Shown here: positions 123 through 64,000 of the stretch, piece after piece
Layout: every line of letters starts with the position of its first letter
How positions within the stretch are numbered: the first letter of the stretch is position 1
NCBI GenBank assembly: GCA_951406725.2
Contig: OX597829.1
Location: forward strand, 50,902,001 to 50,966,000
DNA from: Octopus vulgaris
Taxonomy: Eukaryota
Direction of reading: 5' to 3'
DNA: 64,000 nucleotides
The notes under the pieces: model-generated
What the model was told of the DNA's origin: nothing
Seen by the model: the letters and a program-made list of their open reading frames with translations, nothing else
The model's database searches: none
Program-made: the position numbers and the translations under genes

Positions 123-173
123 TGTATGTATATATATATATATATATATATATATATATATGTATGCACAAAA

Positions 174-349
174 ATAAAGGGTAAAATCAATTAATTATTA
201 ATTAATTTCACCAAGTAGTGTTCAGTATGTAAAAGGACCATTCAAGGCATATTCAAAATATTACGTTATATAATTAGGGCTCAGTAAAATAATTTACTTT
301 GCCACATACTGAAATTTTTAGAAATAGCAGCCAAAAAGTTTTTTTAGCC
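174..349 (-). mobile_element. Inverted arm of the hammerhead-bearing element at 5548-6376
   Basis: Exact reverse complement of 5723-5899 by eye; preceded by (TA)n at about 130-162. Confidence 0.85.
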
Positions 350-1096
350 ACAGAAGTGTCAAACTTATATATTACCATATCTCTTTCACTATTGATGCAA
401 GGAATCAATGTGTGTGTGTGTGTGTGTGTGTGTGTGTGTGTGTGCACAAGTGTTAATTTGTGTACGACTGCTTTTGTGTTTATGTATGCATGCGTATCGA
501 AGTAAATGTGTGTATGAATGCATGTGTGTATGTGTGTGTCTGTATGTATGTGTGTTTGTCTATGGATGCATGTGTGAATGGATGAATGAAGGTATATATA
601 TGTGTATGAATGTGTGTGTATGTGTGCGTCTACAGATGCATGTGTGTGTATGTGTGTGAATGAATGAATGTAAAAGTGTGTATGAATGTGTGAATGTGCT
701 TATGTGTGTTAACACACACACACACACACACACACACACACACACACACACACACAGACTGAGTTGCACAGACAGACAGACAGACAGAGAGAATGACAAG
801 AATCTTCTTATGTAACCTTTGGTATTAGATGGATGGATGGCAGAAGATCTATGAAGATGCGTCTGGTGGATTAATGAGAATAAAAATCTTTACAATTTGT
901 TGATTTGCCACAAATTGCTAACAAATAAATCTCTTTGTTAAATCACAATTTAAGAAAGAAAAAGATGCATTGAATAATGTAGTCCTAGGTACACTATGCC
1001 GAGGAAACAAAATGAATGAGACGGTCACCGTTGAGTTGAATGTTGGAACGTCTTTGCTTTTCCAGAATGTGCTGTATTACGGCCAAGCTGGGGCAT

Positions 1097-1490
1097 TAGC
1101 AGCAGCAGCAGCAGCTGCACTATCAGTACTGCTGCTGGTACCACCACCACAACCATCAACACTACCATCACCACCATCACCACCACCAACACCCCCAACA
1201 ACATCACCATCACCACCAACAACATCAACGCCAACAACTTCACCATCACCAACACCATAATCACCACCACCATCACTACCCCACCACCGCACCACTACCA
1301 CCACCACCACCACAACTGCTAGCATCATAACCACCACTAACACCACCGTCACTGCCACCATATAATCTTTATCATTATCACCACCACTACCACTGCCACG
1401 CCCCTGCTGCAACCACACCCTCCACCATTGCCACAACCACAACCTCTACTACTGCCATCACCACCAACAAAAACAACAACAACAACAACC
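1097..1490. repeat. Compound (AGC)n/(ACC)n/(AAC)n low-complexity tract
   Basis: Trinucleotide runs visible directly; source of the spurious poly-A/P/T/V ORFs. Confidence 0.9.
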
Positions 1491-2595
1491 TGACAGCCAA
1501 AATGTGAGGAAAACTCCAGTGGTTAGGTGTTTATTGTACTCTTTGGTAACCCATACTGAGTACATCTAAGAGTACAAATGGTTTATGGATTTATGGAATT
1601 CAATGTAATTCAATTTCTGGCCCATGATCTTCCCTGTTAGTCATTCAGTGTAAAGGGAGATAATCATTTCAACATAATATTTGGTGGGAACAAGAAATAC
1701 AGAAGAAAATGTCCAGAGTCTTTCAACTGTTTTCTTTTACTTGCTTCAGTCATTTTCACTGTGGCCATGCTGGGGCAGTGCCTTGAAGGGATTTAGTTGA
1801 ATAAATTGACCCCCAGGACTGTTTTTTTAAGTCTTACTTATTCTATCAGTCTCTTTTTGCTGAACCGCTAAGTTACAGGGACATAAACACACCAAGTTGT
1901 TAAGGTGTGATGGAGGACAGACACACACACACACACACACACACACACACACACACACACACTCACACACACACATATATAAAAGCTTACTTGGAAATGG
2001 GGATGCATGGCGTTCAATCAAATGATAATATAAATAATATATAATTTTTCTTGTTTTGCTTACATATTAAAAAGATTTTAAGATTTCAAGTCTTAATTAG
2101 GCAGCCATGTTTGGCACCATTTTATTCCCATTAGAAATGGATAACAAATATTGGAGTAGTGACTAGGAGGTAGCTAACATGGTACATGATTTAGTTGTTG
2201 TTATTGCTGTTGTTGTTTTTGTCATTTGATGATGATGATGATGATAATGCTTATGAGGATGATGATGATGAGGCCTCTGTTGTTATTGCTTGCTGCTGTG
2301 GCTATAGATCAGTGATTCCCAGAGTGGGCAGTATTGTCCACTCCATCTGGGGCCAGTGGAAAGTTCCAAGGGGGCATTGAAGAAAAGTGGGGTAATAATG
2401 GGTTAGGGATTCACGTAAAAGGTGGGGTAATAATGGGGTAGCAATTCGTGTAAAAACAACGAAATAATGGGTTCATTAGGTTAAGTTTTATTTGTGAAAT
2501 ACAGTTGCTTAAATAAAAGTTCTATATCTAAGAGATGAGGAATTGTTTACATTATTTACATTTGATGGATATTTGCCCTCATCTTGTTTGTTGTT

Positions 2596-60399: not shown

Positions 60400-60600
60400 T
60401 ATATAAAGGGAAAGTTTACAAAAATAAACAAAAGACGAAGGCAGGTGGTGTACAAAACAAACAGATGTATTAGTATAGCACTCAGGAATAGAAAAAGTCT
60501 TTTACGTTTCGAGCCTACGCTCTTCTACAGAAAGGGACACAGAAAAAAACAAGGAGAGAAAAAAATGTGTGTAGTAGCTAAAGATCTATCATGGCGTCTG
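60400..60600 (-). mobile_element. Penelope-like 3' end with hammerhead variant (60499-60534)
   Basis: Minus strand CTTT CTGTAGA A GAGC GTAG GCTC GAAAC GTA AAAG; ends TTCCCTTTATATA. Confidence 0.6.
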
Positions 60601-61336
60601 ACTCGGACAGAATTTTAAGTTTCTAAGTTCAAATACTGTAAAAATAAACGACCAACAAAGTCTGGGGTTAATTGAGTTTCTACTAAAAGATAAAGCAAAA
60701 CTCTTACATCTGATCATGAAAAGGTAGGTTGTATAAAACAAAAATAAAATAGAATAAAGCAAAAAGAAGAAAAAAAGAGAAAGAAAAATCAATGTCTTTT
60801 CATGTTCAAACAAAATAGTTTATCTGAATATACAGTGTCCTTCAAATTTGTTGGCATTTAGACCCAAGATAATTTTAACCAGCCAGGCCCATGATCAAAG
60901 ATGTACCAACTATAGCCATCCTCTCTGTCTCTCTCTTTCTCTCTCTGTCTTTGGAGAAATGTATTTAAGAACACATCTGCCAATGTGTTACTCTTTTAAA
61001 ACTGAAGATACGATTTGAAAGAAATTTAACTACGATTTCTTGCAGATCAAGCAACCATAGTGAGGCCACCCTTTAATTGGAGCAGGTGTATATCTTATAT
61101 GAAATATGGCATGGCTATGAGGATAAGAACTTAATTTTGTAATGCCCTGGTTCTCAGTTTGGTTCCACTGCATGGTACCTTGAGACCTGCTATACAAACA
61201 GGCTATGAACTGACCAGTTCCATGGATGGAAATATGATAGACATAAACAGTGCAAAAGCTTGTTTTGTAAGTGTTCATATGTGTGTGTGTATTTATAATG
61301 TTTATAGGACAAATGTTATCATCACTAAGTGTGACT

Positions 61337-61722
61337 GTGGAAGCACTCTGTCGGTTACGACGACGAGGGTTCCGGTTGATCCGAATCAACGGAACAGCCT
61401 GCTCGTGAAATTAACGTGTAAGTGGCTGAGCACTCCACAGACACGTGTACCCTTAACGTAGTTCTCGGGGATATTCAGCGTGACACAGAGAGTGACAAGG
61501 CCGGCCCTTTGAAACACAGGTACAACAGAAACAGGAAGTAAGAGTGAGAGAAAGTTGTGGTGAAAGAGTACAGCAGGGATCACCACCATCCCCTGCCGGA
61601 GCCTCGTGGAGCTTTAGGTGTTTTCGCTCAATAAACACTCACAACGCCCGGTCTGGGAATCGAAACCGCGATCCTATGACCGCGAGTCCGCTGCCCTAAC
61701 CACTGGGCCATTGCGCCTCCAC
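61337..61722 (-). mobile_element. Full-length young tRNA-derived SINE (OR-like), 10-bp TSD
   Basis: Head GGAGGCGCAATGGCCCAGTGGTTAGGGCAG...GGTTTCGATTCCC; TSD AAGTGTGACT at 61327-61336 and 61723-61732. Confidence 0.9.
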
Positions 61723-64000
61723 AAGTGTGACTAAGGGTGTAAGAAGAGCTCAAGATATACATATACTGACAGGGGAGGTAACCGCCCCACGTGCTTATAT
61801 ATATACACATGTATATATGAATGATAGAAAATGGAACAAATGACATTCATTTAATGTCCAGCTTCCATGCATGCATGGGAAGGATGGTTCACAGGAGCTG
61901 TCCAGGTAGAAAATCTATCCAAGGCTACTGCGTCTGTTTTGGCAAGGTTTTTACAGCTGGATGTCCTTCCTGACACCAACCACTCTGCAGAGTGGACTCA
62001 GTGCTTTTTACATGGCACAAGCGCAGGCGAGGTCGGTTTTGGCAAGAATTTTACTGATCAATGCCCTTCCAAATGCTAACCACTTTACAGTGTGGACAGG
62101 ATGATTTTTACTTTGCACCAGCACTGGCAGTGGTACTTATTCGATCGATGTCCTTTGCCAAACTGCTAAGTTATGGGAATATAAACCGCACCACCAACGG
62201 TTGTCAAGTGGTGTCTCAAGCTCAGACAAAAAGACACACTCAAATTGCACCAAAGAATGAGGACCACATTTTAGAAAAAGAGAACTAAGTTCAATTTATT
62301 CAACTAAAAATTCTTCAAGGTGGTGCCCCAGCATGGCCACAATCTAATAATTGAAACAAGTTAAAAATAAAAGATAACTGACAGAATGACCTGCCAAATT
62401 AATTCACAAGGCTTTGGTCAGTCCAGGGCTATAACAGACATTAGCATAGCTAGCAGTGGTGAGGGGAGTCCACTCCAGATGGCACTTTTGGATCTGCTGT
62501 AGGCAATGTACCTTTGTGGGGTCTGGGGGCTGGCAAACAGAAGGGTCACCCTGGCAGCACACACTCTAGCTACACTAGTGTGTGTGTGTGTGTGTGTGTG
62601 TGGTCTTTGTGATATGGAAAGATGACTCCTCTGGGAAAGCAGCTTAGACCCCCACCACATGTCTAGATTCAAGAAATGAACTTTTTGGGACATGTCCACT
62701 CATGGCTAAATATTTTTTACGTTTTGGGTCCTCCCAAAATCACAGATAGAACTTGCTTTTTATATTGTGTCCATGTACAAGCTTTTTATCTCTCTATTCT
62801 TTTTATATATATTTCTTATATATTTTTTACACATTTTTTTACATATTTATAGAGTTATTTTTATATTTTTACTGCTTTATTTACTTTTACACATTTTTAC
62901 TGTATTTTACCTTTCACCCTGCATTTTTCTTGTGCATGTGCATATATAGACGTGTATATAAATTTTTTGTATACGTGTCTGTGCATGTATGTACATGTGT
63001 ATGGCTGCATATATACATTGGTGTACATGCGAGTGTTCCACGCAAGTTTGAGCAAGCATATGCATATATAGCATGTACGTATTTTAGACATGCATTTGAA
63101 TGTAACTATGCATATGGGTAGGTGCATGTGTGCACATGTGTGTGTGGGTGTGGGTGCACATGCATATGTGTGCATGCATGTGCATGCAGATATACATGTG
63201 TGCATAGTGTGTGTGTGTACATGTATATGTGTATGGTTGCATATATATGTGAGCATACATGCATGTGTTCCACGCGAGTGTGAGTGAGCATATAGCATGT
63301 GTGCGTATAGGTGTGTGCACACATGTGTGTGTGTGTGCATGTGTGTGTGTGTTTGCATGCATGTGTGGTTATGTATACGTGTACATGCATGGTTGCATAT
63401 ACATGGGCATCTATTGACGTGTGTTTCATGCGAGTGGGAGTGAGCATGTGCATTTAGGCACATGTGCATGGGTGTGCATGCATGCCTCCATATGTATGTA
63501 TATGCACGCATACACGATTGCTATGAGCATTTTTATTCCTTTACTTTTTACTTCCTCCCCTTCGGTTTTAACGGTCATTCTAATAGCTCTTTTGTCTTAA
63601 TAACAGTCAATTACATAGTACTTTCCCTTAGTTTAACGGTCATTTTATAGGCTATTTCGATTGCCTTGATAACTGAAGAGATGCCAGTGTGGGTTTCCGC
63701 CCTGACATATGAAGCTCGGAGTTTTATTATGGCAACCGAATAATTGTTACATATTATATTACAGATATATATATATATATATATATATATATATATATAT
63801 ATATATATATATATATGTATGTATGTATGTATAGTTTAGGACAATCAGTAAGTTGTCCTAATAGGACTAAGAGCTATGATGCATTCTCATCAGCTATTAT
63901 AACAATAGACACCATAAAAAAATCATTGAATAAAAGGGAATTTACTCTAATAGGTAGGAAAAAAGATAAAAGATAAAAAATACATGCAACCATATTCTCA

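Follow-up and report, generated by a model that had tools for sequence, protein, structure and literature searches.

The 64,000-nucleotide (nt) stretch of Octopus vulgaris DNA analyzed here (GenBank assembly GCA_951406725.2, contig OX597829.1, positions 50,902,001 to 50,966,000; hereafter the window) is rich in AT, dense in microsatellites and full of repeats. Among these repeats are several families of non-coding elements, some of which carry hammerhead ribozyme motifs, end in (TA)n arrays or fold back on themselves as inverted repeats. The families were defined by self-comparison of the window; reading frames were searched with Pfam and RNA motifs with Rfam. All element counts given below are counts within the window, in which ARAGORN found no tRNA genes.

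Hammerhead motifs were searched with a strict descriptor, run against 30 shuffles, and with a relaxed scan, run against 40 block-shuffled windows. The latter tolerates an extra nucleotide beside helix II, as in the hammerheads of Penelope-like elements (PLEs) in PMC4209133. The relaxed scan returned five type I sites with exact cores (2852, 6128, 8894, 28470 and 28243), that is CTGANGA...GAAA cores with pairing in helices I and II, against a mean of 0.075 and a maximum of 1 per shuffled window. Three sites (8894, 28470 and 28243) were also found by the strict descriptor, against 0-0.7 in the shuffles. The CUGANGA and GAAA cores, the NUH cleavage site and the helix order of a type I hammerhead are present at 2852, 8894, 28470 and 28243, and weakly so at 6128. 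The motif of family A (2846-2893, forward strand, core 2852) is minimal, with 6 bp in helix I, 4 bp in helix II, an extra nucleotide after A9 and a palindromic ACGT helix III; it has a decayed partner at 2636 on the reverse strand. The family C motif (8888-8978, forward strand, core 8894) has its GUC site at 8972. That of family D (28463-28545, forward strand, core 28470) combines a GUC site with the helix III palindrome ACAATTGT and has a mirror copy at 28243 on the reverse strand. The weakest pairing among the exact-core sites is that of 6128 in family B (6123-6185, forward strand), with 5 bp in helix I, 3 bp in helix II and a mismatch in helix III; in the upstream copy of this motif, at 5562, the core is broken.

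The relaxed scan also gave two sites with one mismatch. The motif at 10422-10464 (forward strand, site 10428) in element J has a U4C core (CCGACGA) and a palindromic helix III. The other, at 63667-63765 (forward strand, core 63673), is a GAAG variant, deviating from type I at A15.1, and lies about 40 nt upstream of (TA)n. A 14-nt stretch with its first core (63666-63680) recurs near the 5' end of the Naiad_Obim/Ovul consensi, which may be chance. A further hammerhead-like motif at 38903-38984 (forward strand, site 38905) has both cores exact, with helix I decayed to 2 bp. None of these three sites was among the five listed in the first-pass annotation, of which four have intact cores, 6128 being weakly paired. 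The fifth, at 60499-60534 on the reverse strand, reads CTGTAGA and has lost A6; its decayed sister at 7559-7600 (forward strand, site 7563) keeps the first core and has AAAA for GAAA, with G12 lost. U4C is a known natural hammerhead variant (PMC3088659), weak in vitro yet viable in a viroid. In the U4C cores at 8895 and 10428, CpG decay could also convert an ancestral C to the canonical U.

The Rfam model Hammerhead_1 matched 28464-28544 with 28.6 bits (E 1.5e-5) and, weakly, 8888-8978 with 13 bits (E 2.1), and gave no match on site 2852; none of the three reached the gathering score of 34 bits. These scores are low because the helix II loops are long and helix III is minimal. In the Rfam search of the whole window, the 150 of 171 matches listed were microsatellite and hairpin noise and included none of the hammerhead sites. 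Minimum free energy folding brought out helices I and II in families or elements C, D, J and H and failed to do so in B and G; no proof was drawn from it.

Families B and C, with units of 566 and 583 nt, are colinear end-to-end homologues; both are without an open reading frame (ORF) and have the hammerhead at the same place, with the cleavage site 182-184 nt from an inner terminus, T1. Family B is represented by a partial tandem of about 1.47 units of the 566-nt monomer (5549-6375, forward strand; 5549-5814 and 6115-6380 are 96% identical), which stops at T1, before (TA)n. Its start, at 5549, precedes helix I of the first hammerhead position by about 8 nt (one case). A 3' fragment of the family without a hammerhead (161-349, reverse strand; 98% identical to 5723-5911) ends in (TA)n at an outer terminus, T2. 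Family C has two copies. C1 (8595-9162, forward strand) is nearly one permuted 583-nt unit and ends at T1 in (TA)n. C2 (45904-46289, forward strand) is a perfect 270-nt palindrome (45904-46173) followed by a 104-nt tail to T2; it belongs to a hammerhead family and stops before the hammerhead. Family D forms a fold-back between (TA)n arrays (28016-28828, forward strand), with an inverted arm (28016-28321) that ends at T1 and a long arm with a 121-nt tail to T2. The tail module of D aligns to that of C with a z of 5.4, reached in 0 of 300 shuffles. The comparison of the B and D tails stayed under z 2, and that of the whole D arm with C was not significant (score 50; shuffle maximum 51). Since B (6123) and C (8888) are homologous and D (28464) shares the C tail module, the initial description of five sequence-distinct hammerhead types was overstated.

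Family F has no hammerhead in any of its three window copies. F1 (6393-6726, forward strand) lies between two (TA)n arrays and has a 67-nt tail on the long arm; F3 (17655-18114, reverse strand) has a 68-nt tail. The related copy F2 (9245-9612, reverse strand) comprises the element proper (9245-9566) and, at its 5' junction, an inverted copy (9567-9612) of a transposon-like end at 9626. Family A is an old fold-back outside (TA)n (2548-2940), whose arms (2548-2707 and 2781-2940) are 86% identical and carry one hammerhead each. Element J (approximately 10050-10570, forward strand), which holds the 10428 motif, ends in (CT)n(TA)n. A likeness between the tails of F1 and J (z 4.2) was attributed to AT-rich sequence and disregarded. 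No Pfam match of any kind was found in the 50 element reading frames (35-91 amino acids), and neither a reverse transcriptase (RT) nor a GIY-YIG domain in these or in 20 other frames of the window.

Copies end at one of the two termini; T1 and T2 lie 104-121 nt from each other in B, C and D and 67-68 nt in F. The short inverted arms of C2, D, F1 and F3 extend only to T1, and their long arms continue to T2, 104, 121, 67 and 68 nt beyond, respectively. B and C1 terminate at T1 and the fragment at 161 at T2. An inverted 5'-truncated copy is present at the 5' end of A, F1, F3, D and C2. The arms agree at 68 of 68 positions in the fold-back at 6398, at 74 of 75 in that at 17651, at 301 of 302 at 28016 and at 135 of 135 at 45904. 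The four short-arm/long-arm structures of the first-pass annotation all exist. Only the one at 28016 contains a hammerhead; hammerhead and fold-back are not coupled. Arrays of (TA)4 or longer lie within 25 nt of 10 of 14 element 3' ends and 4 of 5 inverted-arm ends, against a background of 3.6%, an excess that is inflated because these ends were chosen by eye. The motif CCCT occurs within 25 nt of 13 of 126 TA-array edges, against a background of about 5-6% (p 0.02, not independent). The arm ends listed earlier as CCCT plus an AT-rich motif are real; as a universal terminus the motif was ruled out, being absent from A, E, G, H and J and marking only two lineages (B/C/D and F). Two more fold-backs without a hammerhead element lie at 14539-14730 and 40002-40043, the former ending in the CCCT plus AT motif and perhaps another truncated PLE end. 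The fold-back at 4237-4510 is a repeat resembling a short interspersed nuclear element (SINE), arranged tail-to-tail around (TA)n.

The window sequence is present in 20 public sequencing runs from 10 studies with four organism labels. Four of these, X1, X3, X4 and X14, were compared over 8536-9165 for family C; they consist of assembled contigs, which hold no information on transcription, strand or circles (X14 is RNA by guess). Family C is high-copy: its summed depth, which is not a copy number, is 1e4-1e6 against 33-50 on the adjoining host piece in X1. Over the host piece 8536-8577, cover is absent from X4 and X14 and low in X1 and X3, and the run data have a sharp edge at 8594/8595. Joints 9162-8594/8596 and 9159-8611, together with loose ends, close family C head-to-tail in X1, X3 and X4, so that the closed family is a permuted unit of about 583 nt; no ORF runs across its joint. 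Position 8966 is G in 99-100% of the depth in all four runs, where the window has T. Helix III is therefore a perfect 8-nt palindrome, which is a mark of dimer-active type I hammerheads (PMC4209133, PMC3088659). Position 8895 is C, that is U4C, in 22-46% of the depth in the four runs. C2 has the family-majority allele at five sites at which C1 differs.

Three elements join inverted copies of neighboring host DNA at their 5' junctions. The largest duplication (4474-5541, arms 4474-4965 and 4973-5541) abuts the 5' end of B; 391 of 398 aligned non-microsatellite bases are identical (98%), and about 490 nt of host DNA are inverted, with 7 nt unassigned at the joint. Before C1, host DNA at 8307-8367 and its inverted copy at 8536-8595 (together 8307-8595) are identical at 60 of 60 positions, with 1 nt of microhomology at the joint. 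The third and weakest case is the F2 junction, with an inverted copy of 25-45 nt (9626-9651 and 9567-9592, 24 of 24 identical with one gap). In all three, 0-7 nt separate the far end of the inverted copy from the 5'-truncated element end to which it is joined. The number of such copies reported at first is confirmed. An additional stub of inverted flank, 16-19 nt long, lies inside the TA array at 8478-8496, ahead of the full 60-nt copy, and could reflect two rounds of snap-back or an assembly slip. The empty-site allele of the B locus could not be reconstructed from the window. A literature search at listing level found no report of inverted host copies at PLE junctions. With three junctions in one window, these alignments are suggestive of target snap-back as a source of host palindromes. 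The broader idea that the elements remodel flanking DNA into palindromes has these three junctions behind it and is weakened by the lack of a bridge among the contigs listed and by at least four fold-backs without an adjoining element.

Together, these results indicate that the elements most likely descend from Penelope-like retroelements, as non-autonomous derivatives and as 5'-truncated ends, and that their insertion was probably the work of a (TA)n-nicking RT/GIY-YIG protein encoded elsewhere; we put the probability of this reading at roughly 80%. It is backed by the hammerhead excess over shuffles, the Rfam match, the colinearity of B and C, the C-D tail homology, the run data for family C, the ORF-less copies and published PLE traits. 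The proposal that these are non-coding, hammerhead-bearing retroelements of the Penelope type favoring (TA)n is thereby supported. The mobilizing RT/GIY-YIG protein and the cephalopod origin are what we infer.

The units of B and C, homologous, with one hammerhead each, closed head-to-tail and ending at T1 or T2, suggest how such insertions might arise. In vitro, the PLE protein of an Anolis element cuts AT-rich DNA, and the tail is the stretch between two internal RT start sites (PMC11167929). By analogy, a protein acting in trans would cut AT-rich DNA and start reverse transcription at two internal RNA sites, giving rise to T1, T2 and the tail. The 5' junction could then be resolved in two ways. 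In the first, a second cDNA started at T1 with the opposite end of the target as primer, or a snap-back of the cDNA, would produce the short inverted arm, as in C2, D, F1 and F3, where the arm stops at T1 and the long arm at T2. In the second, the 3' end of the cDNA or the self-complementary TA end of the target would prime on the upstream host strand and leave an inverted host copy instead of an arm (B, C1 and F2). The hammerhead is predicted to act as a dimer, paired through its palindromic helix III, in cutting multimeric transcripts, which may yield unit-length circles; as regards the fold-backs it would be a passenger. It was dispensable for insertion in Anolis (PMC11167929), in agreement with its loose link to the fold-backs here.

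Several observations weigh against a Penelope origin of this kind. Family F is without a hammerhead in the window, family A lies outside (TA)n, at least four fold-backs (4237-4510, 30438-30690, 42598-42804 and 10951-11044) have no adjoining hammerhead element, and no target-site duplication is readable in (TA)n. The tails of 67-121 nt are two to three times as long as the 30-40 nt published for PLEs, and units of 566 and about 583 nt fall outside the 150-450 nt given for animal retrozymes (PMC7229834). No autonomous PLE partner was found in the window, and of three motifs from B, C and F searched in the supplement of PMC8557442, two were absent and the listed matches of the third lie in elements other than the octopus consensi. 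Among the 32 of 5754 pieces listed, a single contig (from X3) has an opposite-strand joint for family C, and none bridges the host-inversion joint at 8595. The missing bridge neither supports nor refutes that junction.

The inverted host copies, and some of the fold-backs, could also be independent of insertion: (TA)n or palindromic DNA would extrude or break, snap-back repair would follow and the elements would merely share the sites. The element-free fold-backs of the window, which are of several ages (79-93% arm identity), are consistent with this, as is the 4474-5541 duplication, centered on a 7-nt loop and not on (TA)n; the extra stub at 8478-8496 likewise suggests repeated slippage. Repair at shared sites does not predict, however, that the inverted copy joins the 5'-truncated end in three of three cases, where other copies have their own inverted arm, or that the element arms stop at T1 in four of four young fold-backs. 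We consider it unlikely.

According to a second alternative, B, C and D are strict retrozymes, that is distinct circular-RNA replicons amplified as RNA circles and only occasionally reverse-transcribed. It overlaps with Penelope-mediated insertion and differs from it only in the template. In its favor, the unit is permuted, lacks an ORF, closes head-to-tail and retains from copy to copy a single hammerhead with a palindromic helix III, and circles have been shown for the retrozymes of coral, mussel and axolotl (PMC7229834). However, 9 of 252 sites are different between the two B units, against 7 of 398 between the host arms formed with them; a heterogeneous tandem template accounts better for this, although the excess is not significant (p 0.19). 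The U4C core found in 22-46% of the family C depth lowers activity, and the Anolis element inserted without need of its hammerhead. Taken together, these points make a circular replicon doubtful.

An origin of the near-perfect fold-backs in assembly or library artefacts, such as hairpin chimeras among long reads or mis-joins at TA arrays, is very improbable: although the arms are 98-100% identical in six structures, one of them a loop-less 270-nt palindrome, the joint at 8595 is unbridged and PMC8557442 states that such structures trouble assemblies, the arms end at a family-specific T1 that an artefact could not know, the 4474-5541 duplication has 7 substitutions and differing microsatellite lengths, the A arms are only 86% identical, C2, as expected of a young copy, shows the majority allele at five sites that deviate from it in C1, and run X3 holds one opposite-strand joint.

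The window contains other repeats. Several kilobases are duplicated in inverted orientation at 55207-60116 and 32930-36861 (92-100% identity). They probably represent a large DNA transposon present as two decayed copies; at 57443-57811 the repeat contains what is left of a piggyBac-like transposase (DDE_Tnp_1_7). Related fragments resembling long interspersed nuclear elements are found at 26917-27312, 52992-53701 and 34413-34991, and two of their frames match a PHD finger. A 217-nt SINE-like unit occurs three times in tandem at 26332-26982; the copies are 88% alike, and no hammerhead was found in them. The SINE-like repeats of the window resemble those of octopuses. The stretches 9626-9719 and 41759-41852 are 77% alike. 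The fragments at 46517-47870, 41744-41915 and 9626-9719 resemble Mariner elements.

The elements add likely cephalopod members to a known class. A more specific proposal, which we hold only tentatively and think improbable in its full form, is that in this genome B, C and D, a lineage of 570-580-nt ORF-less hammerhead retroelements with a conserved and unusually long two-terminus tail, are moved by a (TA)n-cutting Penelope protein, and that the 5' junctions of the lineage are routinely resolved by target snap-back. Each insertion would then leave a palindrome, built either from the element itself or from host DNA (at most 500 nt). If this were true, it would be a steady source of long inverted repeats, that is of double-stranded RNA and editing substrates, in a cephalopod-like genome, and the inverted arm of PLEs and the inverted host copy would be two outcomes of one step. 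If target snap-back held genome-wide, it would provide a route by which retroelements create host palindromes and a handle on the tandem and inverted structures and tails of PLEs, a question named in PMC8557442. The frequency of the U4C core in a high-copy family also provides a natural test of the level of ribozyme activity that these elements require.

Most of the anatomy described above has published counterparts. For PLEs, PMC8557442 describes partial tandems, an adjacent inverted 5'-truncated copy, a one-sided tail, a (TA)n bias and non-autonomous forms. The window elements resemble its endonuclease-positive (EN+) insertion units in the head-to-tail partial tandem (B as a 1.47-mer; C closed), the inverted 5'-truncated copy, the tail at one end, the terminal hammerhead and the preference for (TA)n. 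They differ from autonomous EN+ PLEs in having no RT and GIY-YIG ORF, and three junctions have inverted host DNA in place of an element arm. According to the supplement of that paper, Hydra-1_Obim from Octopus bimaculoides and three octopus Naiads prefer (TA)n; Neptune elements have a microsatellite insertion bias. In Hydra hammerheads extra nucleotides flank helix II and a 4-bp palindromic helix III lies near the 3' end, which is the layout of 63673 and 6128, and Hydra-1_Obim ends about 36 nt past the cleavage site, compared with about 40 nt (by eye) for 63673. Naiads are without canonical hammerheads, as is family F. The likeness of Hydra and Naiad to B, C, D and F is one of layout, and the helix II loops of B, C and D are much longer. 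Minimal hammerheads are known from PLEs (PMC4209133), and so are opposite-strand pairs spaced by 100-700 bp, such as those of A and D. Since inverted arms, tails, opposite-strand pairs, the (TA)n bias, non-autonomous forms and the octopus Hydra and Naiad elements are already published, the suggestion of one new system largely falls.

The animal retrozymes without long terminal repeats (LTRs) likewise have no coding capacity and a low GC content, consist of head-to-tail units that contain a single type I hammerhead, and are presumed to be mobilized by PLEs (PMC7229834; bioRxiv 10.64898/2026.07.22.740005); the preprint derives retrozymes from the pseudo-LTRs (pLTRs) of PLEs. Here, family B offers two positions for the hammerhead, with the core broken at one of them, and family C closes head-to-tail in short contigs. 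In contrast to retrozymes, the copies in the window are monomers or 1.5-mers and have the inverted arms and tails of PLEs. The junctions with host DNA resemble the snap-back junctions of R2 (PMC11371274), in which the 3' end of the cDNA primes on itself or on nearby target and leaves an inverted 5' segment. Those came from an engineered R2 in human cells, in which priming on nearby target was rarer than on the cDNA itself, whereas here the process is suggested by three genomic junctions, one of about 490 nt. For O. vulgaris, PMC13282606 gives 190 PLE families that make up 6.83% of the genome, 31 of them recently active. Octopus PLEs and squid hammerhead counts have been published, and our literature search found no paper on hammerhead retrozyme families in octopus. 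B, C and D apparently form an undescribed, large retrozyme-like lineage with long tails and a frequent U4C core, which may already stand in the repeat library of PMC13282606 or in the supplements of bioRxiv 10.64898/2026.07.22.740005. Overall, the features of this window are real and of a known kind, mostly the standard insertion anatomy of PLEs spread over several unrelated families.

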